From: Nitrospirales bacterium
GTDB taxonomy: Bacteria; Nitrospirota; Nitrospiria; Nitrospirales; UBA8639
NCBI GenBank assembly: GCA_963555755.3
Contig: OY820905.2
Location: forward strand, 4,064,001 to 4,128,000
Reading direction: 5' to 3'
DNA: 64,000 bases
Shown: positions 5,761 to 57,931 of the stretch, one piece after another
Layout of the letters: the number at the start of each line of letters is the position of its first letter
Position numbering within the stretch: position 1 is the stretch's first letter
Notes under the pieces: generated by a model
Seen by the model: the letters and a program-made list of their open reading frames with translations, nothing else
Databases searched by the model: none
Told to the model about the DNA's origin: nothing
Program-made: the position numbers and the translations under genes

Positions 5761-5843
5761 GGACAGGACAGGGACAGGGGTCAAATCTTGGACAGAGACA
5801 GGGACAGGGGTCAAGGACAGGGGTCAAATCTTTGGTTGACTAA
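5761..5843 (+). repeat. Stuttered solo end of element E, GGACAG-leader variant
   Basis: Iterated GGACAG / GGACAGGGGTCAAATCTT / GGACAGGGGTCAA / GGACAGGGGTCAAATCTTTGGTTGACTAA. Confidence 0.8.
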
Positions 5844-8048: not shown

Positions 8049-8329
8049 GAATTTAGGGTCTTCTCCCAAGTGAGTGGGTAAATTTGGGCGAGTCATTTTC
8101 TGAAAGGCTCGCTGGAGAAGAGGTTGGTGGATTTTTCTACCGTGGGAAAAGTGGCCAGGCGTTCTTGAGGCGTCACGCTGCTCATCCCTCCCCTTTGTAA
8201 GGGGAGGCTAGGTGCTGGCGCGCCGAAGCGTTTTGGCGAAGGCGTGGGGTAGAGCCCGTGGCAAGGAGCGAGCCACAGGCATGCTGAAAGCCCGGACCGA
8301 ATTCGACTCCAGGCTGCTGAGGTGGTTGG

Positions 8330-8530
8330 GATGTGCAGACACAGATGATAATGATTCCCCAGCAGGCAATAGGCCAAGACCTCGACGCCCCATAGCGTAT
8401 GGGTGTCACTCAACACCTGGAGAAAGGTTTCATAATCGGAGGGATCTCGAAAGACAGACTGACGTGCCAGGCCACGGTTCATGGCATGATAGACCGCGCC
8501 CGGATATTCAATGCGGAGAGGTCGGGCCGT
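8330..8530 (-). pseudogene. 5' remnant of RAYT/Y1 HUH transposase
   Basis: Minus strand reads (ACG)ARPLRIEYPGAVYHAMNRGLARQSVF..AYCLLGNHYHL. Start codon lost; truncated after the HUH motif. Confidence 0.85.
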
Positions 8531-16189: not shown

Positions 16190-16240
16190 TTAATCAAAGG
16201 CCCCGTAGCAAGCTGTCGTGGTATCCGAAAAGGATGTATA

Positions 16241-16381
16241 GGGCACCTCTAAAAACCGTCCTTTTCCGTGATGGCGGCGTCAGCCGCGTGCTCAAATCCT
16301 CATGTATTCGCCCATACACTCCGGTTTTCCGCGCGCGGCTTCCTTGCCCTCACAAAAAATGCCTGGTTTTTAGAGGTGCCC
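16241..16381 (+). mobile_element. MITE family B (141 bp), TSD TATA
   Basis: TIR GGGCACCTCTAAAAACC; 4-bp flanking duplication. Confidence 0.92.
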
Positions 16382-16654
16382 TATATGTAAATGCCACAGC
16401 AAGCCACGGGGAATTTAACCCATTTGTGGGATTAATCTGGAATTTTTTATGGACATTAGTAATCGCCAATATTCACCCTGATTGGGTAAACCATATTGTG
16501 AGATCAAAATTTCTTTTTGAATTTAGCTCCTATTATAACATTCATTCAGCCTGCTTTGGTATCACCCCTTCCGTTGCACTAGCGAGTTGAATCTAAGCAT
16601 TATTTTTATCTGAAGGTTATTCATGTGAAGGCCTGTAAAAGGTATTGTATTGTT

Positions 16655-23618: not shown

Positions 23619-23638
23619 AACTTAGTCAGCTCACACAA

Positions 23639-23779
23639 GGGCACCTCTAAACACCGTCCTTTTCCGTGATGGCGGCGTCAGCCGCGTGCTCACATCCTCA
23701 TGTATTCGCCCATACACTCCGGTTTTCCGCGCGCGGCTTCCTTGCCCTCACAAAAAATGCCTGGTTTTTAGAGGTGCCC
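23639..23779 (+). mobile_element. MITE family B, TSD ACAA
   Basis: Near-identical to 16241..16381. Confidence 0.92.
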
Positions 23780-23785
23780 ACAATA

Positions 23786-27902: not shown

Positions 27903-28247
27903 TTCATTGAGCAGACGCGCAGCGGAAGCCTCGACGTGGAGGGAAAGGAGAAGCACATGCCCTTCTTGGGCCAACCGAAAAGTACTGAAGAGGCAACACG
28001 TTGTCAATTACAAATTGGGGAGGTTTCGGCGGCAGGGCTTTTGTGGTGTGAGCACTTCTCAATATTTAGGGTATAGGTGCAGACAAACGAAAGGCCCACG
28101 CGGTTACCAGCCGTTGAGCCTTCCCAAAAAGGGGAGCTGACACAATCTTTCACTAGGTTTAGTGTCTCACGAATCAGGCGGTTCGTCTATTCCTTAAACG
28201 AGGGGTCAACGTGTGATCTACACACACTTCATCATCTGAGTAATGTA

Positions 28248-28388
28248 GGGCACCTCTAAAAACCGTCCTTTTCCGTGATGGCGGCGTCAGCCGCGTGCTC
28301 ACATCCTCATGTATTCGCCCATACACTCCGGTTTTCCGCGCGCGGCTTCCTTGCCCTCACAAAAAATGCCTGGTTTTTAGAGGTGCCC
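28248..28388 (+). mobile_element. MITE family B, TSD TGTA
   Basis: Near-identical to the other copies. Confidence 0.92.
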
Positions 28389-28626
28389 TGTAGTCTACCC
28401 GCTTTCAATAACTCACCTGTCACCCCACCTGAATCACCGTCAGTCAATTTAACAGTATGGAGAAGTGGCTCGAGCCACCATGGATAAGCGCGATATTAAA
28501 TAATCGATACACGCGTCACACAAACAGCAAGCCTCACCGTTTCGGCGGTGGGGCTTTTGGTTGTTTCTTAAGACCACCAAGGGTGAGTTTGGGGAATCAA
28601 GGCGGGTGTCCCCTAACGGGACTATT

Positions 28627-32366: not shown

Positions 32367-32591
32367 AAAAAGGAAAAGAAAAGGGGTCAAATCTTAAAAG
32401 GGGTCAAATCTTTGGTTGACTAAAACTTTAGATTATGTCCCCTGCTCGGAAGAGAAGATCGCGCTCCCAGAAAAAAGCAGTGGATGAAAGAGCGACGAGA
32501 AGTTTGAAACGAAACTCTCAACCAAAGATTTGACCCCTTTTTGACCCCTTTTCAACCAAAGATTTGACCCCTTTTTGACCCCTTTTCTTTT
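32367..32591. mobile_element. Element E copy 1 (core 32396..32541) with stuttered ends
   Basis: TIR AAAAGGGGTCAAATCTTTGGTTGA plus partial end copies on both sides. Confidence 0.9.
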
Positions 32592-32823
32592 TAAAAAAAC
32601 GACAGCCCCCCCAGATGAGTGGCTGGGCCGAGGAGTCCTCATTCGCCCTCCCCTTTGTTGGTGTCAGCCTGGTGTCAAGCAACCGGACAACCTGAGCAAG
32701 AGAGACCCGACGAGACCCGACGAAACCCGATGAAACCAGATGAGGTGAACCCTGCATGAATGAGGGGTGGGAGAGGAAATCGTCAAGCCAGACAACGACT
32801 TGAACGATTCCCTTATAAAGGGC

Positions 32824-32878
32824 TGGTGCCGAAGGCGGGAGTTGAACCCGCACACCCGTGAGGGCACTAGAACCTGAA
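32824..32878 (-). other. att site: 55-bp copy of the tRNA-Leu 3' half up to the anticodon loop
   Basis: Identical to 44445..44499. Confidence 0.92.
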
Positions 32879-33829
32879 ACGACTGATGGCTATTGGCTGT
32901 TGTTGTTCATGGTTGGCCAGAGTCGCATGAACAGGGGATTTTCTCAAGGTCCCTGTTACACCAAGCTATGGCAAGCATTGGCAAGCTACGGCAGCCACTT
33001 GACAATTTCTTGACAAAATTTGAATGCGTCCACCTGTGGGGTAGGGGGGGGCACCCTTGCGCCAAGTACCTCAGTCTCGGAGTGACAGTCATGTCCCCAG
33101 TCATACACAGCCGAATTTTTGCCAAACACCCATCGCTGTTCCCCATGACCCACCTCCTTGCGCATTCTCGCGCGTTTCAGATGTGTCCACACTGATGGAG
33201 GAAGACCAAACCGCGTCACAAACAGCAAGCCTCATCGTGTCGGCGGTGGGGCTTTTTACGTTGGTCACTTGTCACAAGTGGCCCTTCACACAGAAGTATG
33301 TGCTGCGGAATCTGATTCACAAGGTCGTCTAGGAGAGGTCCGGGCCGGGGGGCTTGCGTAAAATTGTGGTGGTGGAGCATAGCTGCCTCCTCTCCACCCG
33401 GCAATTTATCGCGCAACAGGTGGCCTAATCACTGGGGGCAGGTCACCCCGAAATTGGGGTATCAAAAAAACTGACAATGAATTTCTGGTCCCCGAGGGTA
33501 ACAGTAAGATTTCCTTCCGTTTAAATACAGGAATTTGGGGGGTTTTATTAATATTTCTGTCTTTCTTTGGGGTTTTTCCCCTGTCAGAAAATTTGACAGT
33601 TTCTACCATACGTCATTGGACGTACTTGCTGTTCCTTGAGTTGAATCTTTGGTACCTACGCTCTCTTTTGGACAAATCGAAATTCTCCCCAGTAAAAACT
33701 TTTGACAGTTTTCGCAACGAGCTCCAAACCAAAAAAAAGTCTTCATCGAAATATTATCCACAAAAAAACATCTATATTCTCAACAAGTTAGCTCTTATTC
33801 GAGAGCGACCCATCACCTGATTTTAACCG

Positions 33830-33845
33830 TGGCATACGTTTTGCT
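33830..33845 (+). promoter_or_regulatory. Sigma-54 promoter of the PEP-CTERM gene
   Basis: TGGCATACGTTTTGCT; upstream palindrome TGTCAGAAAATTTGACA near 33582 is a candidate enhancer. Confidence 0.75.
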
Positions 33846-33920
33846 TAGTATACAACGCAACAGCAATTTAAATGGGTCGCCATAATATTAATCACTCAAT
33901 TACACCAAGGAGGTATTGCC

Positions 33921-34712
33921 ATGAAACACTCATCCACCACCACAATGAACAGACAAACATCATCTTTACAAGGAAAGACCGCCCGTGCCAAGAGAGGGCT
34001 GATGCGCATAGCCCTGTGTCTGGTCGGGATGGCTTTCACGCTCCTGCCACTGCCAGCCCTTGCCTTAACCTGGAATTTGGCAGACGATTTCTCGCTCTCC
34101 AATCCAAACGCCCCGTGGGAGTACGGAAAGTACACCGGGGGGCTGGACCAGAACACGTTCCAGCAATATGCTAATTCAGAAATTTTTCCTCTTGGGGGGT
34201 CCGGCATACTCCACATTCATCGTAACTCCGGAACGGATGATCCCAACATCATAAAGAACGTTGGCATGGAAGACACTTGCTGTAGTGGTCCAATAACTTT
34301 TCATGCCGGTGCGGTGACGTTTGGGGCGACCTTTGGACCCGCAGTCGTGGTTTGGACCGCGCCATTTGCTGGGATGTTCCAGGTGGATGCCACGTTTGCA
34401 ACCGTTCAACCAGGCGTGAATGTCTTGCCTACTGCTCACGTTTTTAATGGGACTGTCTTTGTCAACCTAGCTGCCATCCCTGTCTTTGGTACCACCAGTG
34501 ATTATAGTGGGCTCTTGGCGCTGGGATTGGGCGAGGAGATCCACTTCGTGGTAGCCCCGACTACGGAAGGAGGGCAGAAGACGGTCGAAGTCTCGGCGAT
34601 CATCAACAGCATTCCGCGCACCAACCCTGTCCCCGAACCCAGCACGATGTTGCTGCTCGGATCAGGCTTAGTCGGACTCATTGGCTACCGGATGAAGAAA
34701 GCACAAGCGTAA
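33921..34712 (+). CDS. PEP-CTERM sorting-domain protein
   Basis: Signal peptide; C-terminal VPEPSTMLLLGSGLVGLIGYRMKKAQA. Confidence 0.92.
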   Translation: MKHSSTTTMNRQTSSLQGKTARAKRGLMRIALCLVGMAFTLLPLPALALTWNLADDFSLSNPNAPWEYGKYTGGLDQNTFQQYANSEIFPLGGSGILHIHRNSGTDDPNIIKNVGMEDTCCSGPITFHAGAVTFGATFGPAVVVWTAPFAGMFQVDATFATVQPGVNVLPTAHVFNGTVFVNLAAIPVFGTTSDYSGLLALGLGEEIHFVVAPTTEGGQKTVEVSAIINSIPRTNPVPEPSTMLLLGSGLVGLIGYRMKKAQA

Positions 34713-34742
34713 ACGCATAGTCGATAATTTAGTCACACAATC

Positions 34743-34780
34743 AAAGAGCCTCACCGTTTCGGCGGTGGGGCTCTTTCTCT
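34743..34780 (+). terminator. Rho-independent terminator-like hairpin (repeat family)
   Basis: AAAGAGCCTCACCGTTTCGGCGGTGGGGCTCTTT; relatives near 16743 (reverse), 28529, 31141, 33227, 42792. Confidence 0.75.
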
Positions 34781-34866
34781 TGGCCGCATTCATCAAGGTC
34801 TGTCACTGACCCAGAGACAGAGCTACAGACCCTATTTTCAATAACTGGACAATACATCCCCAAGCC

Positions 34867-35210
34867 ATGAACATCAGAATAATTCAGTGGAATATTTCAA
34901 TGAAATGCAAGGCCGAAAAAATAGCGTACTGCTTATCCCGCTATATTCATGGCCCCACCATTATTACCTTGCAAGAAGTTTTAAAATCCACATATGCCCA
35001 GATTGCGTCTGTGCTGACCCCTCCTGGAAGAGCGTACAGTCTTGCTTTACGAAAAGCCGGAAACCATGAAGGAAGAAATCGTAAAATGGGTGTCGCGACA
35101 TTCGTTTTCGAAGGCAGAATACCTCATTACGAACTCGTATCACGTAGTATTTTTCCAGAAAGAACCTTGTTTTCGACATGCCAATTCGAGGGGAAGAATA
35201 TTTCCTTGTA
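34867..35210 (+). pseudogene. Truncated endonuclease/exonuclease/phosphatase-family gene
   Basis: IIQWNI and ITLQEV motifs; abuts an XRE-like tail (IAQALGVTLSELV). Confidence 0.65.
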
Positions 35211-35282
35211 TCGCACAGGCTTTAGGCGTAACCCTCTCGGAGTTAGTCGGCGATCAACCACAATCAACCAAAAGGAGGTCCG

Positions 35283-36470
35283 ATGGGACGGACAAAACGA
35301 AAGGACGGGTATTACGTCGAGTTTCCCGTCATTGACGATGGGAAGGTCTTGACGTTAGCGAGAGGCACGCCTGGTGCCAAGGTGAAACGGTGGCGCGTCG
35401 GGTGCCGTAACAAAACGATGGCTCAAGACCAGGAAACTATTATCAAGAACAAGCTTCTCAACGGAACAATGGTAAGCGTTCGGGCAAAGCTGGCAATAAT
35501 GACCTTCGGCCAATGGGCCAAAGAATATGTGGAGATTGAAGAAGTGAAGTGTCTCCGCTCCTACACTGAGCGATGCCAGCGAATTACCGTGGTCCTTGTT
35601 CCATTCTTCGGCAAGACATTGTTGCAGGACATTACGGCCAAAGATGTAGAAGCCTTCCGCCAGGAGCGGGGGGAGGGGCGTGCTGTGGCTACCGTCAATG
35701 TGGATCACAACCTATTGAAGCACATGTTAAAGCATGCCATGAAGCGCGATTTGATTATGAGGAATGTGGCGTCTTTGGTCACAGCGCCGAAACCAAAGAA
35801 CGCTCGCAATCGAGTGCTCGAACCTGACGAGTGGAACCGGCTCTATGGTGCCGCGCCCGAATGGTTCCAGCCAGTGCTGTTGACGGGCTACCACACGGGG
35901 ATGCGACTAGAGGAAATCCTGACGCTCACGTGGGATCGGGTGGATCTGGAGAAGGGCCGCATGTTCCTTCCTGGACATCTGACCAAAACAGGGCAGGATC
36001 GTACCGTCCCTTTGACGCCGATGCTTCGGAAGGAACTGCAACAACTCCGGGACTATGGTGGCGTTGCTCGAATTCAAGGCTTGGTGTTTCAGAAGGATGG
36101 CCAGAAGATTAACCACAGCTATCGCGTGGTGAAGGAGTTATGCGAGGAGCAGCACATTCCGAACTTCGTCTTCCATGACTTGCGGCATTGTGCTGTCACG
36201 AATTTAGCGGATTCTGGAGTAGAGATTGAGACGATCATGAAAATCGTCGGGCATTCCAGTATTGAAATGTTCCTACGTTACCGCACCATCACGGCGGATA
36301 AATTAGACACCGCCATGTCCAGCCTTAACACGCTAATAACACGGCGTCAAAACGCCGCTCGCCAAGAAAAGGGGTCAGAAAAGGGGTCAAATCTTTGGTT
36401 GACTAAAACTTTAGATTATGTCCCCTGCTCGGAAGAGAAGATCGCGCTCCCAGAAAAAAGCAGTGGATGA
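35283..36470 (+). CDS. Tyrosine integrase, duplicate with C-terminus replaced by element E
   Basis: Identical to 43332.. up to AARQ, then reads through element E. Confidence 0.85.
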   Translation: MGRTKRKDGYYVEFPVIDDGKVLTLARGTPGAKVKRWRVGCRNKTMAQDQETIIKNKLLNGTMVSVRAKLAIMTFGQWAKEYVEIEEVKCLRSYTERCQRITVVLVPFFGKTLLQDITAKDVEAFRQERGEGRAVATVNVDHNLLKHMLKHAMKRDLIMRNVASLVTAPKPKNARNRVLEPDEWNRLYGAAPEWFQPVLLTGYHTGMRLEEILTLTWDRVDLEKGRMFLPGHLTKTGQDRTVPLTPMLRKELQQLRDYGGVARIQGLVFQKDGQKINHSYRVVKELCEEQHIPNFVFHDLRHCAVTNLADSGVEIETIMKIVGHSSIEMFLRYRTITADKLDTAMSSLNTLITRRQNAARQEKGSEKGSNLWLTKTLDYVPCSEEKIALPEKSSG

Positions 36471-36529
36471 AAGAGCGACGAGGAGTTTGAAACGAAACTC
36501 TCAACCAAAGATTTGACCCCTTTTTTTTT
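36367..36529. mobile_element. Element E copy 2 (core 36379..36524)
   Basis: Same TIRs; truncates the integrase on the left and the P450 on the right. Confidence 0.9.
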
Positions 36530-36988
36530 ATCATGGTCGAGAACTCGAATTTCACCCTCCCTCCAGGACCCCATCATGCGCTGTGTATATTCCGCCGTGA
36601 CTTTCACCAACCCATCTATTTGATGGCAAGGAAAGCAGCGTTGGACTAACTGTCGTTGCCGAATCCAACTAGCACCTTCGCTAGACATTAACCCATTGCC
36701 AAGTACATTCCAGGTAAAATCCTTTGGGGGACGTGACAAATTCCTGCTAAAAATTCGATGATTGGTTGTCAGGACGGTTTCGATAAGCTCGGGATGACAT
36801 AACAGGTATGCCCTTATGCCGGGAAAGCGAAGGCCTACCACATCACCATACTCGCGCGCGCATTGGGAAACAAACCCTAACGGGTCTCTTCTATACTCTA
36901 GAAGGTTGCCAAAAATGGGGTTGCCTTTAGGCCCAGGCGGAAAGGATTTAGCCGTCACGTAAGCGTACCTTTTCAAAAGGATGTACAA
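36530..36988 (-). pseudogene. Cytochrome P450 5' fragment
   Basis: PPGPKGNPIFGNL..LGNGLMSSEG..W.RQR; no haem motif, cut by element E. Confidence 0.85.
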
Positions 36989-37023
36989 AGGAACAACTCA
37001 TTGAACTTGACTCCCCTGAAACT

Positions 37024-38097
37024 CTACTTCTGACGCCAAAGCAACAAATAACCGGTGATCAATTGAATCGAAATCCCAATCCCCACGACGACATAAAGCA
37101 GTTTTGTGAACAATCCTCCGAAATAACCCGCGTGAAGAGGGACATCAAGGTTAATGAAGCGTTGTCCCATTGACGCTGTACGACTGTCTTCTGTTCGAAT
37201 CACGTCTCCACTATGTGGGTCGATATAGACCACACTTGATCCCCTCGGATTGGTATCCTCGGAAAACCGCTTTCGGACTTGAAAAGGCTGCCTAGGTCCT
37301 AAGGGCATTCGAATCATGACGATTTTTCCACCAGAAAGTGTCGTATTCGCAATGTGTACAAGATCGGATACTCGCTGAGGCCTTAGAGGAGCCTCGGATA
37401 ATGTATGTGATGCCAGTGGAGGATTTCCGTTTGGGCCCTTGGCTAGGCTTTGAACCAAATTTCCAACTAGCGGAAAGGAGAAATAGACACCCGTTAAGGC
37501 AATAACCAGCACAACAATGGCTGAATGTATTCCCCACATATTATGCATATCCAAAACGGCATGCTTCCATCCTGAATTTAATCTGAGACGCCAAATGGTC
37601 TTGAGTGTGTTAGGTGATCTCCTCCACCATAGGATCAGGCCTGTTAGTGTCGAGACAATTAGTAGAATACTCCCCATGCCATTCAGAGTTATTCCAATAG
37701 GCCCTCCTAGAAATAGATCCATATGAAAAATTAATATAAACCCCATCAGTGATCCACTCATAGTCCTGGAACCTAAGATTTCACCGGAATACGGGTTAAC
37801 ATAGATGCGGGAATTCCACGAATTGATAAGTAGTTCGTAGACTCCTTCAGGTGACCTGGGGAACGTAATTGAGATGATTCGATCTGGAGAACGGGTACTT
37901 TGAACGTTGGTCATAATCTCTTCAAGAGATAAAATTTCCCCCTGCGGCGTAACTCGAAGCAGTTGAGGATTCAGCCATTCATCAATTTCGGAATGGAACA
38001 CGAGAATACTTCCTGTCGTACCCATCAGGAGAAAATATACGCCAATATACAGATTTAAATAACGATGAATACTATGAAAAATTCTTTGTGGCTGCAT
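37024..38097 (-). CDS. PepSY-associated TM-helix protein
   Basis: HRYL..TGSILVF..EID.WLNP, YVNPYSGEILG, LHAG motifs. Confidence 0.9.
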   Translation of the reverse strand: MQPQRIFHSIHRYLNLYIGVYFLLMGTTGSILVFHSEIDEWLNPQLLRVTPQGEILSLEEIMTNVQSTRSPDRIISITFPRSPEGVYELLINSWNSRIYVNPYSGEILGSRTMSGSLMGFILIFHMDLFLGGPIGITLNGMGSILLIVSTLTGLILWWRRSPNTLKTIWRLRLNSGWKHAVLDMHNMWGIHSAIVVLVIALTGVYFSFPLVGNLVQSLAKGPNGNPPLASHTLSEAPLRPQRVSDLVHIANTTLSGGKIVMIRMPLGPRQPFQVRKRFSEDTNPRGSSVVYIDPHSGDVIRTEDSRTASMGQRFINLDVPLHAGYFGGLFTKLLYVVVGIGISIQLITGYLLLWRQK

Positions 38098-38151
38098 AGC
38101 TTGGTTCCTAGATCACGAAGAAGTAAATATCCACGGGCTTACCCCCCCTGG

Positions 38152-40055
38152 CAGGGCCATTTCATTCTTTTTATAAGCAAGGGATTCCATGAGGTTTTTT
38201 GTGCCCTCTTTTTCAGGGCAGGGCCATGCGGATGGCTAAATGGGGCTTGCCCCAGAGCAGTCTACACGCCTGCGCGATATTGGTGTAGCCTTTCAGGCGT
38301 AAGAGACTGATGGCATAGCGTCTCAGACAGGTCATGACCATTGGGCCATTGAGACTTCGTATCTGACTCCTGTCTTCATCAAAGGTGACGTCCAACACAT
38401 AATGCTGCTTATTCTCCACACTCCAATGCTTTCGGTTTTGCGAGAGGATGGTCTTCGGCCCCGCCTTGTCTTTGGACTGACTCGTGACACCGCAGACCGC
38501 TTCGACGGTCGTGAGGCCCTGCTTGAGATGCGTCACTTCCCTCTCAATGCAGAAGACTTGCTGGACATGAGGAAAGTTGACATAGGCATTCAGGGAGTCA
38601 TCGCACCAGATCCTGCGGGTCGTGATCTGCCCATGGCCTTTCTCGGTGGTGGCATAATCGCACCGGCGTGCTCGCAACGCTAAGGCCTCAATGTCGTGCT
38701 TCAAGGTGGGCTGGTTTCCCTTGACGGTGAAGACGAAGTCGGCGCCGCGTTCGTGCACCAGGTACTCGGCAATCTCTTTCTGGGTGAGGAGCGCATCCGC
38801 CGTGATCACCTTCCCTGCGATCTCGAGCGCATCTAACAGGGGCCGCACGCAGGGGATCTCATTGGTCTTGGAGTGAACTTTTTTTGGGTGAGGTGGCGCC
38901 CGGCTTGATGGGTGACGGCGCTGAGGACGTGGGGCTGTTCGCTTGGGACCTTCGACGTCCCCCGCATGGTCTTCCCATCAATGGCAATGCCCTGATCCTC
39001 CCCGCCGAAGGTGTCCAGCCACCGGCCGAGCAGGGTATCGACTTCACAGGGGTCGACGGCCGTGATAAAGCGGTAAAGAGTGCTGCGGCTCGGGACGAGG
39101 TAGCGCCCCCCTCGCTGAGTACAGCCTAGCCGCTTGCGCATCGGCTGCGATAACTGCTGGGCCCAGTCCGAGATCGCTTCATAGCCGCGCGCGCCGCACA
39201 AGGTGGCACAGAACATGATCGCCGTGAGGGCGCGTCGGGTGTGCCGTTGCCCTTGCAAATGGCGGGGATCGGTCAGCTGCACCACATACGTAAAGAGGGA
39301 GTCCGTCTGTTTTGTATTCAATCTCATCTGAGGCGCTTCTCCTTTCTGATAGGGCTGATCAAGCATCGGGCGTGCAAGGATCTCTCGGGCTTGGGGATGC
39401 AGCCGCACGACTAGGATGCGCTTCGGTCTCTCATGCTGAACATAACACGTGTTCGACTTGCGAAACCCTCGTGTCAGACCGAGCTCGTGCCACCCGGCGG
39501 CCCGATAGCAGGTCCCGGTGAAGCGGGCAGGATCGACGAAGGTCTCTAAGAGGAGCAAGGGGTAGCCGTGGTACAGTTGCCAATCGGCCGAGATCCGTTT
39601 CGCGCAGAGCGACAGGACTTTCGAGGCGAGGTTCTTTTGCGAACAGCCCGGCAGCATGAGAAACCAGGTGTTGTTGGCCAGTAAATGGAGTCGTTGCCAT
39701 TGAAAACAGGGGGGCCAGCCGATCCAGTGGTCTCGCGGTCTCGATTTGAGGGCCGCCGCCGCAAACACCAGCAAGGCCAGCCAGCGATCCTGCACACAGG
39801 CGAGATATTGTATCGATTGGCCAATCAGCGGGGCATGACCGAGGTAGTGGTGTCTGTCGAGAAGGGTCTTGAAGGCGTCCTTTTCGTCTCGGACAATTGG
39901 GCGAACCACGACTTGCCTCAGATCAATGTCCGGCTGTCCGCTTGGCGATTCGTCTGGCATACAAAAGAGTATGCCGTAAACGAAAAGAAAAAGCCAGCCT
40001 AAATCGATTATTCCTTATTATCTATAAAGTTACACTTTAATATGAAATAGCCCTG
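38152..40055 (-). mobile_element. ISAs1-family IS (1,904 bp), 10-bp TSD CCCCCCCTGG
   Basis: TIR CAGGGCCATTTCAT / CAGGGCTATTTCAT; TSD at 38142-38151 and 40056-40065. Confidence 0.92.
38213..39960 (-). CDS. ISAs1 transposase with N-terminal DUF4338 (DruA-like) domain, split by a -1 frameshift
   Basis: HHYLG, LLETFVDP..FTGTCYRAAGW; AIDGKT; A7G slip restores QKKVHSKTNEIP; ITADAL, VKGNQP, HWSVEN, FDED. Confidence 0.88.
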
Positions 40056-40606
40056 CCCCCCCTGGTCCGCCGCTCTAGCCTTGATAGATAACATCAGGTC
40101 AAAGCCGTCCGAGTGCAAAGAGCCCTGGTGAAATAGCCGACAACGACGGAACAGCTCTTTCCTTACATGGCATTAATTCTTCTCTTCAGCTCGCCGTCCT
40201 CCGCCCAGGATTTTCTTCAGCTTTTTTTCGAACACACTTCAGAGTATGCTTTGACACCGAGATGACTCAGACCACACCTTGCACGTCAATGCGAAGAATT
40301 GGGTGCTCGTCCAATTCGGCAAACACACGGTCCAATACGTCCCTTGAAAGAGCACGGTATCCTGGCGTAGTAGGCCGGTGGCCAAAAATTCGGTTCGCCC
40401 TCACGACGTGTTCCCTGTTAAGCAACAGACCAAAGATGATCCATGGGCCTACGTTATGTCCACAGGACATCCCTTTAAGACGTCACAATATTTCCTATTG
40501 ATTTGGAGAATATGGAAGTTCTGGAAGTCCATAGTTTAGCCAATGATCAATGGTGACTAATAAACGGAACGAAACGCCCGATTTGATTGAGAAGACAAAA
40601 AGATAC

Positions 40607-40824
40607 AAAAGGGGTCAAATCTTTGGTTGACTAAAACTTTGAAAAGGGGTCAAATCTTTGGTTGAAAAGGGGTCAAATCTTTGGTTGCCTAAAACTTTAG
40701 ATTATGTCCCCCTGCTCGGAAGAGAAGATCGCGCTCCCAGAAAAAAGCAGTGGATGAAGACGAGGAGTTTGAAACGAAACTCTCAACCAAAGATTTGACC
40801 CCTTTCTGACCCCTTTCCCCTTTC
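40607..40824. mobile_element. Element E copy 3 with stuttered ends
   Basis: Three left-end starts (40607, 40642, 40665); right-end stutters use a GAAAG leader. Confidence 0.9.
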
Positions 40825-40856
40825 TAAACCGTCTTTTTTCCCAAGGTTTATAACAC

Positions 40857-41159
40857 CTACCGAAGTTGTAGTTCTAGTTTTAAGCCAACTGCTTCCGCAG
40901 CCTTTTTCATAGTGTGCAACGTCACCGATTCATTTTCTGGATCTAGTAAGCGATCCAATTGAGATCGGCTGGTTTCCATGTGGGAAGCCATGGCTGCCTT
41001 CGATAGATTCTTTCGTTCCATGGCTTCGCTCAGTTTGTATGACAGTACTTTTTTAATCGCATCAGTTTGACAATCTTCGTACTGTCCTTCCGCTTTCAGT
41101 AATCCTTCAAGCGTGGACCCGGATCGTGGGTTAATCTTTTTCCGTTTCATATCGCTCAT
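40857..41159 (-). CDS. XRE/HTH antitoxin
   Basis: SKAAMASHMETSRSQLDRLLDPENESVTL; overlaps the toxin stop. Confidence 0.88.
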   Translation of the reverse strand: MSDMKRKKINPRSGSTLEGLLKAEGQYEDCQTDAIKKVLSYKLSEAMERKNLSKAAMASHMETSRSQLDRLLDPENESVTLHTMKKAAEAVGLKLELQLR

Positions 41160-41505
41160 GCTCCTTCTTGCGTTTGTTTGCGAGCTTTAATTCTTTTTCT
41201 GGGGTCTTTTGTGATTTCTTCACAAATCCATGAAGCAGCACCATTTCAGGACCACTCACATAGAAAAACACTCGTGCAATTCGTCCATCCGGTAAATCAC
41301 TGCGGACTTCACGAAGCCCAGCATAGCCTGATAAAGACCTACACAGTGGTTGGCCACAGGGCCAACCAAATTCGACGGTCATGATGTCCCTGCCGATGAT
41401 CTTCCGATTGGCACCAGCCAATTCCAACAGCCATTCCCTAACAGGCTCTTTCCCACTGGGAAGCCTGTAAAACATAGCTGTAATGACCTTCTGAACTTGA
41501 CTCAC
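41131..41505 (-). CDS. RelE/HigB-like toxin (Gp49/DUF891 type)
   Basis: GKEPVREWL, LREVRS, ARVFF, LLHGFVKKSQKTP. Confidence 0.9.
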   Translation of the reverse strand: MSQVQKVITAMFYRLPSGKEPVREWLLELAGANRKIIGRDIMTVEFGWPCGQPLCRSLSGYAGLREVRSDLPDGRIARVFFYVSGPEMVLLHGFVKKSQKTPEKELKLANKRKKEHERYETEKD

Positions 41506-41513
41506 ATATTATA

Positions 41514-41529
41514 GTACCAAAAAAGGTAC
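41514..41529. promoter_or_regulatory. Candidate TA autoregulatory operator
   Basis: GTACC-N6-GGTAC palindrome just upstream of the toxin start. Confidence 0.5.
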
Positions 41530-42170
41530 ATTCCTGCAATCTTTTTTTCGAGGTTAAATATCCCAATGTCCCACTGAAGGTTGGCTTTTTCCGAAATGTG
41601 CCTTAGAGTTAAAAGTTGGCCAGAAAAGGTAAGGGAGAAACTCTCAAAAAGGGGTTCTGTCGCAAATAATAGAGTTGTGAGTTACGCCACTGGTTTTCAT
41701 GTTGGACCAAGTTGAAAAACTCCAGTAAAGTTGACAATTCTCGTCTGCGGGACACGGAGATAAAACCCCTTATTGCCTTCAAAAACATTGTTTGCGACAG
41801 AACCGAAAAAATCGCTTCCGTCAGCATACGTTAGGCCCCCTCTCGAAACGCGGCTATTTTTTCAGAGGTTTTTAAAATCTGGGGGGAATCTATCCCCTTC
41901 CTGCCAAGTTATTTGTTTGGCCATTTCTTTTTCAACTTCTCTACCAGCCACTGCCATTTCCCATGTTCGTGTGGTAATTTCAATATCCCATCCAAATTAG
42001 CTCCGGTAAGGTTTCCCCCTCCCTTCTGAATCTATCTTGAAAGACCCTGCGGTTGATGAATAGAGCCCCGTCCGATATTCTCCTGAGGCGTGTTGGAATG
42101 AACGCAGATTCGCTAGTCGACTTGCCGCCCCAAATCCCTTCATGAGGGTGCTATGCCCTGTGCGTTTTAG

Positions 42171-42390
42171 AAAAGGAAAAGGGGTCAAATCTTTAAAAGA
42201 AAAGGGGTCAAATCTTTGGTTGACTAAAAAAGGGGTCAAATCTTTGGTTGACTAAAACTTTAGATTATGTCCCCTGCTCGGAAGAGAAGATCGCGCTCCC
42301 AGAAAAAAGCAGTGGATGAAAGAGCGACGAGGAGTTTGAAACGAAACTCTCAACCAAAGATTTGACCCCTTTTTCTTTTTGACCCCTTTT
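42171..42390. mobile_element. Element E copy 4 (core 42228..42373) with stuttered ends
   Basis: Same TIRs; abuts the start of duplication copy 2. Confidence 0.9.
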
Positions 42391-44415
42391 CAGTCGTGGT
42401 TTGGACCGCGCCATTTGCTGGGATGTTCCAGGTGGATGCCACGTTTGCAACCGTTCAACCAGGCGTGAATGTCTTGCCTACTGCTCACGTTTTTAATGGG
42501 ACTGTCTTTGTCAACCTAGCTGCCATCCCTGTCTTTGGTACCACCAGTGATTATAGTGGGCTCTTGGCGCTGGGATTGGGCGAGGAGATCCACTTCGTGG
42601 TAGCCCCGACTACGGAAGGAGGGCAGAAGACGGTCGAAGTCTCGGCGATCATCAACAGCATTCCGCGCACCAACCCTGTCCCCGAACCCAGCACGATGTT
42701 GCTGCTCGGATCAGGCTTAGTCGGACTCATTGGCTACCGGATGAAGAAAGCACAAGCGTAAACGCATAGTCGATAATTTAGTCACACAATCAAAGAGCCT
42801 CACCGTTTCGGCGGTGGGGCTCTTTCTCTTGGCCGCATTCATCAAGGTCTGTCACTGACCCAGAGACAGAGCTACAGACCCTATTTTCAATAACTGGACA
42901 ATACATCCCCAAGCCATGAACATCAGAATAATTCAGTGGAATATTTCAATGAAATGCAAGGCCGAAAAAATAGCGTACTGCTTATCCCGCTATATTCATG
43001 GCCCCACCATTATTACCTTGCAAGAAGTTTTAAAATCCACATATGCCCAGATTGCGTCTGTGCTGACCCCTCCTGGAAGAGCGTACAGTCTTGCTTTACG
43101 AAAAGCCGGAAACCATGAAGGAAGAAATCGTAAAATGGGTGTCGCGACATTCGTTTTCGAAGGCAGAATACCTCATTACGAACTCGTATCACGTAGTATT
43201 TTTCCAGAAAGAACCTTGTTTTCGACATGCCAATTCGAGGGGAAGAATATTTCCTTGTATCGCACAGGCTTTAGGCGTAACCCTCTCGGAGTTAGTCGGC
43301 GATCAACCACAATCAACCAAAAGGAGGTCCGATGGGACGGACAAAACGAAAGGACGGGTATTACGTCGAGTTTCCCGTCATTGACGATGGGAAGGTCTTG
43401 ACGTTAGCGAGAGGCACGCCTGGTGCCAAGGTGAAACGGTGGCGCGTCGGGTGCCGTAACAAAACGATGGCTCAAGACCAGGAAACTATTATCAAGAACA
43501 AGCTTCTCAACGGAACAATGGTAAGCGTTCGGGCAAAGCTGGCAATAATGACCTTCGGCCAATGGGCCAAAGAATATGTGGAGATTGAAGAAGTGAAGTG
43601 TCTCCGCTCCTACACTGAGCGATGCCAGCGAATTACCGTGGTCCTTGTTCCATTCTTCGGCAAGACATTGTTGCAGGACATTACGGCCAAAGATGTAGAA
43701 GCCTTCCGCCAGGAGCGGGGGGAGGGGCGTGCTGTGGCTACCGTCAATGTGGATCACAACCTATTGAAGCACATGTTAAAGCATGCCATGAAGCGCGATT
43801 TGATTATGAGGAATGTGGCGTCTTTGGTCACAGCGCCGAAACCAAAGAACGCTCGCAATCGAGTGCTCGAACCTGACGAGTGGAACCGGCTCTATGGTGC
43901 CGCGCCCGAATGGTTCCAGCCAGTGCTGTTGACGGGCTACCACACGGGGATGCGACTAGAGGAAATCCTGACGCTCACGTGGGATCGGGTGGATCTGGAG
44001 AAGGGCCGCATGTTCCTTCCTGGACATCTGACCAAAACAGGGCAGGATCGTACCGTCCCTTTGACGCCGATGCTTCGGAAGGAACTGCAACAACTCCGGG
44101 ACTATGGTGGCGTTGCTCGAATTCAAGGCTTGGTGTTTCAGAAGGATGGCCAGAAGATTAACCACAGCTATCGCGTGGTGAAGGAGTTATGCGAGGAGCA
44201 GCACATTCCGAACTTCGTCTTCCATGACTTGCGGCATTGTGCTGTCACGAATTTAGCGGATTCTGGAGTAGAGATTGAGACGATCATGAAAATCGTCGGG
44301 CATTCCAGTATTGAAATGTTCCTACGTTACCGCACCATCACGGCGGATAAATTAGACACCGCCATGTCCAGCCTTAACACGCTAATAACACGGCGTCAAA
44401 ACGCCGCTCGCCAAG
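42391..44415 (+). repeat. 2,025-bp direct repeat, copy 2 (5'-truncated PEP-CTERM, EEP fragment, integrase)
   Basis: Appears identical to 34342..36366. Confidence 0.95.
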
Positions 44416-44444: not shown

Positions 44445-44530
44445 TGGTGCCGAAGGCGGGAGTTGAACCCGCACACCCGTGAGGGCACTAGAACCTGAAT
44501 CTAGCGCGTCTGCCATTCCGCCACTTCGGC
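44445..44530 (-). tRNA. tRNA-Leu(CAG)
   Basis: GCCGAAG acceptor stem, anticodon arm CTAGA-TTCAGGT-TCTAG, long variable arm, GTTCAA T-loop, CCA end. Confidence 0.97.
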
Positions 44531-54783: not shown

Positions 54784-55260
54784 ATGCAAATAACCGAACG
54801 AGTCGTTGGTCTGGATAATATTCTTTCGCTGAGTGGGAAAGTTGTGTATGAGGCGAGAAAAGATTTTCAACAGGCCTTCTAGGAAGCCAAAGAGAAAATT
54901 CCCCCGAAAACTCGTGCTCAATATGGAAGGGTTGACCTATCTTGATAGTTCTGGGCTGGGGATGCGTGTCGTAGGTTGTGAGCAAGCCAAGCTACTCAAT
55001 CTTGCCTTCTGTTTAGTGAATCCTGTTGGTGCCCTGAGGCAAATTTTTGATTTGGCCCAGCTTCCGGCAATGATGCCTGTGCATGACACTAAAGGGCACC
55101 TCTACAAACCAGGCATTTTTTGTGAGGGCAAGGAAGCCGCGCGCGGAAAACCGGAGTGTATGGGCGAATACATGAGGATGTGAGCACGCGGCTGACGCCG
55201 CCATCACGGAAAAGGACGGTTTTTAGAGGTGCCCTAAAGAACAAGCCCTCCGCCTGACCC
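54784..55260 (+). pseudogene. STAS anti-sigma antagonist (stop, frameshift, MITE insertion)
   Basis: MQITER..; LTYLDSSGLG; removing the MITE restores HDTKEQAL. Confidence 0.8.
55094..55234 (-). mobile_element. MITE family B, TSD TAAA
   Basis: Reverse copy with both TIRs. Confidence 0.92.
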
Positions 55261-55487: not shown

Positions 55488-55742
55488 CTCCCCCTTTGGA
55501 AAAGGGGGGGAGGGGGGATTGTACGATAACCATACCCTCACACACCAAGCTTGCACTGTCTGAGCGACTAGGGCCGCCCCCGAGTCAGGATGGGGGCCGT
55601 TGGTGCCGGCACCCGCTTTGCCCCTTCGGTTGGATCGGCAGCCACGCCGGGGGAACCCGCTTTGTGGGAGGCAAGAAATGTGCAGAACTTGCCTGTTCCG
55701 GATCAGAAAATCCCCCCAAGCCCCCCTTTTCCCAAGGGGGGA
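55488..55742. repeat. Inverted pair of CCCCCTTT..AAGGGGG palindromic units
   Basis: 55488..55520 and 55708..55742 are mutual reverse complements. Confidence 0.6.
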
Positions 55743-55902
55743 CCAGGCGGGGAATTATTCAACCCATTCACCCTCCCGGTGACGCGAAGAGCCTTTTGTC
55801 TTTGGCTACCGGCAATGGCCGGGACTCGAAAAACGAGGATTGAGCTTCACGCCACTCATTGGGCAATTGATCCGAATGCGACTCCTAGAACCATATATTC
55901 TG

Positions 55903-57931
55903 GTGCGACCAGGCAAGGCTGGTCTGATGGGAAAGGAGGCTGCGAGGACTCTTTGAAAATCAGTTCATGGTCCAGTGGGTGCAAAACCCACCCAACCAAA
56001 GCGGAGCCCGGCAGGGTGGTAGCAAGCCTTGCGCCAGCGCGGGTAACCGTTATGGCGATGCGTAGGCATGCGAGCGTATGGGCCGCAGGAAATGCAGCCT
56101 CGAAAAGTGGAATATCCTGGATGTCTAGGGGCTCGGAATCTCTGAAGACCACGGCGTCGTCGCCGGTATGGGGCAAGGCGGCGGGGCATCCGGCGGGGTG
56201 AACGACTGGGGCACGTACGAAGAGGATGATCCAGGAACCTGGGAGGCCCTCATTTCTCCCTGGGAGATACCCGGTGCCACGGGGACCCGGTGACCACTCT
56301 CCGACGAACACGCGGACGCGGGTGCCTGCGTGACTCGGTGTAGAACAAGCACTCGCCTCAGGGTAGGCCGACGGCAAGGGGAACCGGAGCTGCGGCTGAG
56401 GGGGATGAGGGAGTCGGAGGGCGGCATAGGAGCGACAACGTCGGGGAACGGGGTGGTGCCTGGACCGGACCGAGCAAAGGCTGCCCGTGTTGATAGGAAC
56501 GTCAGGAGGGAACCATGACCAAGGCATTGATGTGGGATTCCATGTCACCGGAACTTTTGACGGTAGCGGAACGAGCGAAACGGGAACCCGAAGGACGATG
56601 TCACGCCTTGGCCCATCTCATCGATGTGCCAGCTCTGACACGCGCCTACCGACGACTCCGCAGGAATGCCGCGGTAGGTGTGGATGGTATCACCAAGGAG
56701 CAGTATGGGCAGGAGCTGGAGCGGAATCTCCAGGATCTGCATCACCGGCTGAAGACGAAGCGGTATCGTCATCAACCGATTCTCCGGGGATATGTGCCAA
56801 AGGGGCAGGGTCGGCACAGGCCGATTGGGATATCGGCGACAGAGGACAAAGTGGTCCAAGGGGCGCTGCGGGACGTATGGGAGGCCATATACGAGACGGA
56901 GGTTACCGATAGCTCGTATGGGTTTCGACCGAAACGCGGTGCGCATGACGCGCTTCGGACTTTGAACCGAGCGGGGCATGGTGGGGAAATGAACTGGATC
57001 GTGGAGGCGGACATCGTCTCGTACTTTGACAGCTTGGATCGCACCAAGCTGAAGGAGATGATTCAGAAACGGGTCGCCGATGGGGCGCTCATGCGGCTCA
57101 TTGGCAAATGCTTGAATGTGGGCGTGCTGGACGGCGAGGTGTATTCCGAGCCGGACGTGGGCACGGCCCAAGGCTCGGTCCTCTCCCCGCTCCTCGGGAA
57201 CATCTACCTCCATTACGTGCTCGATCTCTGGGTAGAATCCGAAGTGAAGCCACACCTCCGGGGGAAGTGCATCTTCGTCCGGTATTGTGATGACTTCATC
57301 TTTGGTTTCGAATGCCAGGACGATGCGGAGTGGGTGATGCTGCTGCTGGGAAAGCGGATGGGAACATATGGACTGACCCTGCATCCGGACAAGACTCGCC
57401 TGTTGTACTTTGGGCGACCGTTCAAGGGGCAGCAGGCAGGCAAGGGGCCGGCCAGTTTCGATTTCCTCGGGTTCACGCTGTAGTGGAAGCGGTCCCGATA
57501 TGGACGCTGGATCTTGGCATTCAAGACCCGAGGTGCACGCCTCACGCGGGCCATTCGGTCTGTGTACGACCGGTGCCGACGCCATCGGCACCGGTCGGTG
57601 AAGGAGCAGCACATGGCGCTCGTGAGGCACGTGCGCGGCCACATGAACTATTTTGGCGTGAACGGGAATATCCGTAGCCTGCATCTTCTTCTGGTGCAGG
57701 TTCAACGTGCCTGGTTCAAGTGGCTTCGGCGTCGCAGCCAACGGACGCGCCTCACGTGGGAGAGGTATCAGGACCTGTTACGGGACTTTCCTCTTCCCCG
57801 TCCACGGATCGTCGTCCAGATCTGGGGGCGGTAACCCGCGAGCCATATCAGCGGAGGAGCCGGATGGTCGAAATGTCCTTGTCCGGTTCTGGCGAGGGCC
57901 TCGGCTGGGTGACTGGCCGGGGCTACTCTAC
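55903..57931 (+). mobile_element. Group II intron
   Basis: 5' GTGCG; domain V GAGCCGGATG..GTCCGGTTC; domain VI ending TACTCTAC; internal RT ORF. Confidence 0.93.
56515..57834 (+). pseudogene. ltrA: Group II intron RT/maturase with amber stop at 57481, no endonuclease domain
   Basis: RPIGI, SYGFRP, ADIVSYFD, GTAQGSVLSPLLGNIYL, YCDD, FLGF*; the maturase continues in frame. Confidence 0.9.

Follow-up and report, generated by a model that had tools for sequence, protein, structure and literature searches.

Element E, a 146-bp non-coding mini-transposon with stuttered ends, and its putative TIRYT partner in a Nitrospirales genome

Results

Element E and its copies

We analyzed a 64,000-nucleotide (nt) stretch of the genome of a Nitrospirales bacterium (GenBank assembly GCA_963555755.3, contig OY820905.2, positions 4,064,001 to 4,128,000 of the forward strand; hereafter the window), which contains four co-oriented copies of a short element that we designate element E. 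Coordinates refer to the window unless they carry the prefix G000:C1, which denotes the whole genome. The cores of the four copies are as follows.

32396..32541, plus strand: E1 core, 146 bp, with 24-bp terminal inverted repeats
36379..36524, plus strand: E2 core, 146 bp
40665..40806, plus strand: E3 core, 142 bp, with a 5-bp deletion, a 1-bp insertion and the leader GAAA at the right end
42228..42373, plus strand: E4 core, 146 bp

The copies are 98–100% identical over aligned columns and are bounded by 24-bp terminal inverted repeats (TIRs) of the sequence AAAAGGGGTCAAATCTTTGGTTGA, from which E3 deviates by GAAA at the right end and by one inner change at the left. E is non-coding, with stop codons in the frames read, and a scan of Rfam returned no family at E. 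In its short, non-coding length of 146 bp and in its 24-bp TIRs, which fall within the 15–30-bp range, E resembles a miniature inverted-repeat transposable element (MITE). Alignment of 20 mini-elements revealed subfamilies of E that are 65–100% identical and locally clustered, each cluster mostly in one orientation; the orientation of paired E elements follows no clear pattern once the replication origin and terminus of this genome are placed from GC skew. None of the 23 paired elements genome-wide is flanked by a repeat of at least 4 bp (the maximum is 3, the same as for random pairs), and target-site duplications (TSDs) of 2–3 bp are indistinguishable from chance, most paired elements showing 0–1 bp. 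E is a real 146-bp non-coding mini-transposon. The initial annotation of this stretch had reported four co-oriented copies, 24-bp TIRs and no short TSD, all of which holds, one copy being 142 bp long.

Partial copies at the ends of E

Partial copies of E's own ends, which we term stutter units, abut seven of the eight E ends; the right end of E2 carries none. The stacks of units in the window are listed below, together with those of a solo TIR.

32368..32395, plus strand: E1 left stack, units of 6, 5 and 17 nt; a single short-read contig covers it in three of four runs
32542..32591, minus strand: E1 right stack, units of 11, 23, 11 and 5 nt, with junction contigs at 100% identity
36367..36378, plus strand: E2 left unit, 11 nt and an additional G identical to the flank base
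40607..40664, plus strand: E3 left stack, units of 34+1 and 23 nt
40807..40824, minus strand: E3 right stack, units of 11 and 7 nt
42171..42227, plus strand: E4 left stack, units of 6, 18, 5 and 28 nt
42374..42390, minus strand: E4 right stack, units of 5+1 and 11 nt
5762..5843, plus strand: solo left-type TIR with six stutter units, all with the locus-specific leader GACA

The left stack of E1 truncates a 566-bp paralogous segment. The genome contains 80 occurrences of a 20-nt end motif, which make up 65 stacks, and 24 of these stacks are stuttered, compared with 20 of 2000 control sites; this first parser required an inner extent of at least 3 nt, and none of the units was 3. A finer parser, which also takes in units of 5–6 nt and was applied to 58 ends of two TIR families, detected units at 36 ends as opposed to 46 of 3000 control sites that have the same leader plus GG, and the stutters are thus not due to chance. 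Six of the 89 units in the finer parse were counted twice (overlapping stacks at genome positions 2174398 and 2174526).

Each unit starts 4 or 5 bases outside the sequence GGGGTCA. The leader that units share is 4 nt long in 28 of 46 units and 5 nt in 10 of 46, and the inner stop varies from 4 to 52 nt; the longest unit in this genome, which belongs to a sister family, extends for 409 nt. Leaders vary between loci and are constant within a stack, with the rare leaders GACA, GATA, AGAA, AAGA and AGTA being copied only inside their own stacks. Because leaders differ by locus yet agree within a stack, the units were copied locally, in cis. Of 22 single extra bases, 20 are identical to the nucleotide immediately 5' of the unit, which argues against non-templated addition as the main source of such bases. 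These cis-copied leaders and flank-templated bases indicate that each stutter unit is an exact tandem duplication of local sequence, beginning at −4 or −5.

Comparison with native paralogs allowed us to locate the position at which unrelated DNA begins. We examined 24 junctions and set aside 10 (four belong to another TIR family and six end at the edge of another element). In 10 of the 14 informative junctions homology ends at the 4-nt leader; the remaining four contain 1–2 extra bases, as does one junction in the congener G005. The last flank base in those 10 junctions is G in six, A in two and C in two, and a purine occupies −5 in 53 of 58 ends; A-runs may raise this count.

The initial annotation had held that most ends carry partial copies with a fixed outer terminus and a variable inner stop, and the genome-wide parse agrees. 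Its leaders do differ by locus, but they are 4 nt long (AAAA, GAAA, GACA) rather than 5–6. It had also proposed that a protein-linked 5' end is joined to arbitrary 3'-OH ends; this fits with the lack of a fixed TSD, but the units are copied in cis and the acceptors are purine-biased.

Unit lengths in stacks of the E and F families peak at 5–6, 10–12, 17–18 and 23–26 nt, and purine ends account only in part for this ladder of about 6 nt.

A 2,025-bp duplication surrounds E2–E4

The segment 34342–36366 is repeated without a mismatch at 42391–44415 (2,025 bp). The first copy stops exactly at the outer left end of E2, and the second starts exactly at the outer right end of E4. Both native flanks end in G followed by AAAAGGGG, and both edges of the duplication fall between G and AAAAGGGG. 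E2, E3 and E4, together with two fragments that we designate cargo X and cargo Y, form a block of 6 kb that a target duplication of 2,025 bp encloses.

34342..36366, plus strand: first duplication copy, with the 3' part of a PEP-CTERM gene, a small open reading frame (ORF) and an integrase gene without its last 7 codons; about twofold depth in four of four runs
36530..40606, minus strand: cargo X, with a 5' fragment of a P450 gene (36530-36988) cut at E2, a PepSY-TM gene and a later ISAs1-like insertion (38152-40055)
40825..42170, minus strand: cargo Y, with a Gp49/DUF891 plus helix-turn-helix (HTH) gene pair and an unrelated 152-bp repeat
42391..44415, plus strand: second duplication copy, starting inside the PEP-CTERM gene; the integrase gene is intact to 44438, beside tRNA-Leu

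The coincidence of the duplication edges with the outer ends of E2 and E4 is a new observation of this locus, and the duplication had been overlooked in the initial annotation, according to which copies of E cut the integrase, P450 and PEP-CTERM genes. Truncation is genuine for the P450 gene, which ends after about codon 153. In the integrase copy no more than the final 7 codons are missing, and, owing to the presence of 34342–36366 a second time at 42391–44415, an intact copy remains of both the integrase and the PEP-CTERM gene. Both cargo fragments are lower in G+C (46–48% in cargo X outside the insertion sequence (IS), 45% in cargo Y), and apart from inserted repeats neither has a second copy in the genome.

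The read evidence consists of short-read contigs only and excludes the small-share runs X1–X17 and X23. An 86-nt contig, 100% identical and at single-copy depth, covers the whole left stutter of E1 in runs X18, X21 and X22 (two samples of one study) and is not among the matches listed for X19. A shared 1,659-bp contig that ends at the duplication junction has about twice the neighboring depth in four of four runs from two studies. One sequencing run has the same IS allele as the assembly and is possibly not independent. The suspicion raised in the initial annotation that stutters might be assembly artefacts is ruled out by these contigs for the left stutter of E1 and for the duplication, the two structures that this check covered.

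Several features surround these structures. A 55-bp copy of the tRNA-Leu end (32824-32878 vs 44445-44530) and the tyrosine integrase mark a tRNA-anchored island, which contains E2–E4; E1 lies just outside. The ISAs1-like element at 38152-40055, whose first ORF has a DruA-like domain, has 40 near-full copies in the genome; it is absent from this site in runs X18, X20 and X22 and present in X19. The Gp49/DUF891 plus HTH pair (40857-41505) is toxin-antitoxin-like and 84% identical to a stretch in genome G016. A different 143-bp repeat occurs at 16239-16385, 23637-23783, 28246-28392 and 55088-55236 and in 123 copies genome-wide without strand bias, and the remains of a group II intron (Rfam RF02005), which include a reverse-transcriptase ORF, lie at 55590-57483.

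A Y1-HUH gene shares the ends of E

A search of the genome for Y1_Tnp returned 17 matches. One intact gene encoding 319 amino acids (G000:C1:761652-762611) sits between E-type ends, with TIRs at G000:C1:761596 and 762619, and this Y1 enzyme is the only gene found between these TIRs. The first 30 nt of this cognate gene are identical to the right end of E (30/30), which supplies the link to Y1 or RAYT genes that the initial annotation had suggested seeking; its 3' end matches the left end of E at 29 of 30 positions. The TIR on the 3' side overlaps the stop codon, and the 5' end is stuttered. The window itself contains a relic of such a gene.

8321..8528, minus strand: degenerate remnant of the 5' part of a TIRYT gene, with 84.6% identity to the intact gene outside the window

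The cognate protein matches Pfam Y1_Tnp with 45.8 bits (cut-off 23), and its C-terminal HTH matches Bac_DnaA_C with 39.1 bits (cut-off 31.5) and DnaA entries of the PDB by sequence and fold. H60-Y61-H62 and Y119 are invariant in 70 of 70 aligned homologs, and its closest homologs are found in Nitrospirales-type genomes. The predicted structure (pLDDT 91) most closely resembles TnpA-REP (4ER8), together with DnaA domain IV. The NCBIfam model REP_Tyr_transpos scores 73.5 bits, below its cut-off of 80, and no GTAG, the mark of repetitive extragenic palindrome (REP) hairpins, was found on direct reading of the cognate TIR ends. At the motif GGGGWSAS, which has been reported for some TIRs only, E reads GGGGTCAA and agrees at seven of eight positions; among 155 homolog ends, 91 have A and 47 have G as the eighth base.

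Because its ends are shared with an intact gene for a Y1-HUH domain plus a DnaA-domain-IV-like domain, E is a putative non-autonomous partner of this cognate gene within the TIRtron/TIRYT family. The family was named TIRtron/TIRYT by Di Nocera, De Gregorio and Rocco in 2013 (PMC3733652), and Quentin et al. (2018) place TIRYTs as TnpA-Y1 subclass 2.1 / 2.1.2, the second-largest subclass, present in 14.9% of strains (PMC6006769). Our assignment to subclass 2.1 follows domain content and TIRs, as opposed to the profile and tree of Quentin et al. A preprint equates subclass 2.1 with RAYT group 1, and group 1 RAYTs are described as more duplicated than other RAYT groups except the IS200-like group 6 (Bertels 2017). 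In the literature covered, we found no bench test of the TIRYT family.

Three near-identical copies of a second TIRYT family indicate that whole elements move. Stutters also recur beyond this genome: in 107 TIRYT loci of other genomes, isolate genomes included, they are present at 16 of the 92 5' ends and at 9 of the 63 3' ends (25/155), with leaders mostly of 4–13 nt and units reaching about 170–660 nt. Controls gave 7 of 352 matches, which were themselves further TIR-like ends.

At least eight TIRYT-type TIR families coexist in G000:C1, and their TIRs appear to act as landing pads. A group II intron-like element that encodes a reverse transcriptase lies inside TIRYT-type ends, for example at L189 (G000:C1:228423-230308), and its position in the G-run is the same in at least six ends of the E family and, for two other TIR families, in a single end each. 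A 1.48-kb element with a duplication of about 12 bp lies in the ends of another TIR family at L190 (G000:C1:176560-178060) and at about a dozen other sites; its 425-codon ORF is, by reading alone, IS4-type DDE transposase-like. IS30-like elements follow left ends of E at three sites. In a gammaproteobacterial genome (L179/L180, G163:C4:930032-939201), two near-identical TIRYT elements lie within 9 kb of sequence that also contains a 130-bp mini-element with the same ends, seemingly inverted relative to them, a clustering that echoes E.

Orientation of solo ends relative to replication in this genome

Over eight motif families this genome has 96 solo and 76 paired ends. Read 5' to 3', 75 of the 96 solo ends run in the leading direction (36 clusters vs 6, with 7 tied). 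For comparison, this orientation is shared by 20 of 40 IS copies, by 59 of 123 MITE copies, by 52% of hexamers in the background and by 61% of the long ORFs; the solo bias exceeds the 61% gene bias with p=3e-4, and rotation of the origin gave the best fit at the GC-skew origin. Promoter selection was considered as a source of the bias and rejected: the next gene points the same way for 23 leading solos and the opposite way for 25. The pattern is suggestive, in this genome, of a link to the replication fork.

Discussion

The piles of stutter units and the 2-kb duplication are, in our judgment, probably scars of a TIRYT enzyme that nicks just beyond the element end and joins this end again to freshly synthesized DNA. 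Cleavage by HUH enzymes yields a 5'-phosphotyrosine and a free 3'-OH (PMC3333891). The TIRYT enzyme would nick one strand 4 (sometimes 5) bases outside GGGGTCA, and its tyrosine is predicted, from HUH chemistry, to hold the 5' end of the element. The nicked flank would be left as a primer, and a host polymerase would extend its 3'-OH. Rejoining to a flank whose extension into the element covers anything from a few bases to hundreds, or to a nascent strand stopped there, would generate an exact tandem partial copy, that is, a stutter. Rejoining to a 3' end elsewhere would create a one-sided junction without a fixed target duplication. The acceptor would usually be the element's own extended flank, and each end would act independently. 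A pair of joins, one on each strand and separated by 2,025 bp, would produce the duplication around E2–E4, any size being allowed, and the E copies would serve as joints between cargo fragments. Okazaki fragments are usually 1–2 kb long. The 2,025-bp duplication is near this length; it is one case, and its geometry is silent on fork direction.

A number of observations weigh against this scheme. The solo bias was not replicated in 11 other genomes (35/67), for which the origin proxy was dnaA, the motifs were noisier and the test was cruder. Stutter frequency shows no strand bias (37/99 vs 16/40, p=0.85), and in TIR family K none of 24 ends was scored as stuttered. No further kb-scale duplication was found at the termini of 11 motif families in this genome, in the 107 other-genome loci (flanks of at most 3 kb) or in eight longer regions; repeats at L082 and L181 look like IS copies, and that at L031 is an 88% paralog. 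The interior of E has no detectable homology to the TIRYT gene, which led us to reject E as an internal-deletion derivative and bears on its origin. A search of the congeners G002, G003, G005 and G006 for a clean empty site returned only one-sided breakpoints or shared sites, and for this reason no single insertion event could be reconstructed. TnpA-REP does not cut double-stranded DNA in vitro (PMC3333891), so that a nick in duplex DNA would need local melting or a fork.

It is tempting to extend the scheme to TIRYTs at large as a widespread, reversed-polarity form of transposition, in which protein-held 5' ends are caught by nascent 3'-OH ends at the fork. Such a process would give kb-scale target duplications (from a leading-strand and an Okazaki-fragment end), leading-oriented solo ends, self-stutters and homology-free splicing of 1–2-kb foreign fragments by mini-elements. 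We offer this extension tentatively and consider it doubtful.

The strongest rival retains the same enzyme and dispenses with synthesis. Cuts in single-stranded DNA at the fixed −4 position and at a loose purine site, followed by cross-joining between sister strands or with a small circle as in IS608 and TnpA-REP, would make stutters unequal exchanges and solo TIRs excised pieces of 25–30 nt inserted at forks. TnpA-REP cuts many sites between C and T and recombines them in vitro (PMC3333891), and the solo bias observed here has lagging-strand-template polarity, as for IS608. Solo ends of TIR family M also favor this rival: 13 of 18 match the parent ends over 24–28 nt, and the DNA that follows is mostly unrelated. 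The short units speak against such exchanges: 30 of 89 are only 5–6 nt long and would require two cuts 5–6 nt apart inside the binding site. Reciprocal headless copies, moreover, were not noticed, although no systematic search for them was made. We regard this explanation as unlikely, though a serious contender.

Enzyme-independent slippage or repair at the A-run and G-run could make the stutters if another transposase moved E, and the homopolymer runs in the ends and 1–2 nt of microhomology at many junctions are in keeping with such an origin. Control sites with the same leader plus GG, however, have units in 46 of 3000 cases, compared with 36 of 58 true ends. The −4/−5 start, moreover, is maintained whatever the leader sequence, even for units of hundreds of bases, and junctions with unrelated DNA use the same position; this origin is very improbable. 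That E is a conventional MITE mobilized by a DDE enzyme, its stutters and 2-kb duplication reflecting assembly errors or later recombination, is scarcely credible: its size, TIRs and non-coding nature fit and DDE elements abound in the genome, but TSDs of at least 4 bp are lacking at all 23 paired elements, the only gene found between these TIRs encodes a Y1 enzyme, contigs reproduce the E1 stutter and the depth and edge of the duplication, and stutters recur in isolate genomes.

If nicking followed by rejoining to new DNA is correct, TIRYT elements represent a neglected route to gene capture without homology, and to the truncation and duplication of genes. Such an enzyme acts on single strands and has to deal with a pair of inverted ends that lie on opposite strands. 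The scars yield exact predictions: a cut at −4/−5, its polarity, a purine-ended acceptor, dependence on a polymerase and independence of the two ends. The 146-bp E and the 319-amino-acid enzyme offer a ready substrate pair.

Comparison with known systems

A scheme of nicking, extension and rejoining closely similar to ours has been drawn for amplification of bacterial interspersed mosaic elements (BIMEs) by TnpA-REP (PMC3333891, Fig. 7B legend), and the chemistry is consequently not categorically new. The initial annotation had spoken of a poorly described system. No stutters, cut sites or long duplications of TIRYTs were found in the literature covered, where only two papers use the term TIRYT and which took in few subscription journals and no figures or supplements (Figure 9 and the additional files of Di Nocera et al. 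may show stuttered ends); the family, on the other hand, has a name, and a similar model is in print for TnpA-REP. New at this locus are the putative non-autonomous partner, the test for copying in cis, the read-supported exact 2-kb duplication and the strand bias of solo ends.

TIRtrons/TIRYTs resemble the system described here in their Y1-HUH gene, C-terminal DnaA_C-like HTH and TIRs that start GGGG-T-C-A, in the overlap of a TIR with the 3' end of the gene, and in the occurrence of TIRs in the genome as singles, dimers and groups (PMC3733652, PMC6006769). The available text of these two papers does not describe end-anchored partial copies, the cut position or leaders, nor cargo joints, kb-scale target duplication, strand bias or an enzyme test. 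E also differs in having A at the eighth consensus position, where C or G is published.

TnpA-REP is the closest solved fold to the predicted structure (4ER8), and the BIME model comes very close to what we propose for E: a nick provides a 3'-OH from which host polymerase is primed, and the Tyr-5'P is attacked by a 3'-OH (Ton-Hoang et al. 2012, PMC3333891). That model also uses a second cut, and REPs are GTAG-tagged hairpins cut between C and T by the product of a stationary gene (PMC3333891). The elements described here, in contrast, lack GTAG, would be cut at a fixed distance whatever the leader, and move as whole elements.

The IS200/IS605 family (IS608, ISDra2) shares the Y1 fold, the absence of a target duplication and a link to the lagging-strand template, but its members are excised precisely, recognize a fixed target motif of 4–5 nt and have dissimilar ends, both on the same strand (PMC5027513). 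The ends of E are inverted and lie on opposite strands, its native flanks share only a purine-biased last base, and stutters and rearrangements are left behind. Bacterial MITEs moved by DDE transposases are likewise multicopy and non-coding, with lengths of 70–300 bp and TIRs of 15–30 bp (definition in PMC3733652). E differs from them in its lack of a TSD, its putative tyrosine-enzyme partner and the local clustering of its copies in one orientation.

Two further systems recall the architecture of the locus. IS91/ISCR elements undergo rolling-circle, one-ended transposition with one fixed and one variable end, and they have a larger Y2 enzyme and unlike ends. IS26 forms translocatable units in which directly oriented copies alternate with cargo, through a DDE enzyme and with 8-bp TSDs. 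E resembles the former in combining a fixed end with a variable one, and the latter in its co-oriented copies that alternate with cargo.

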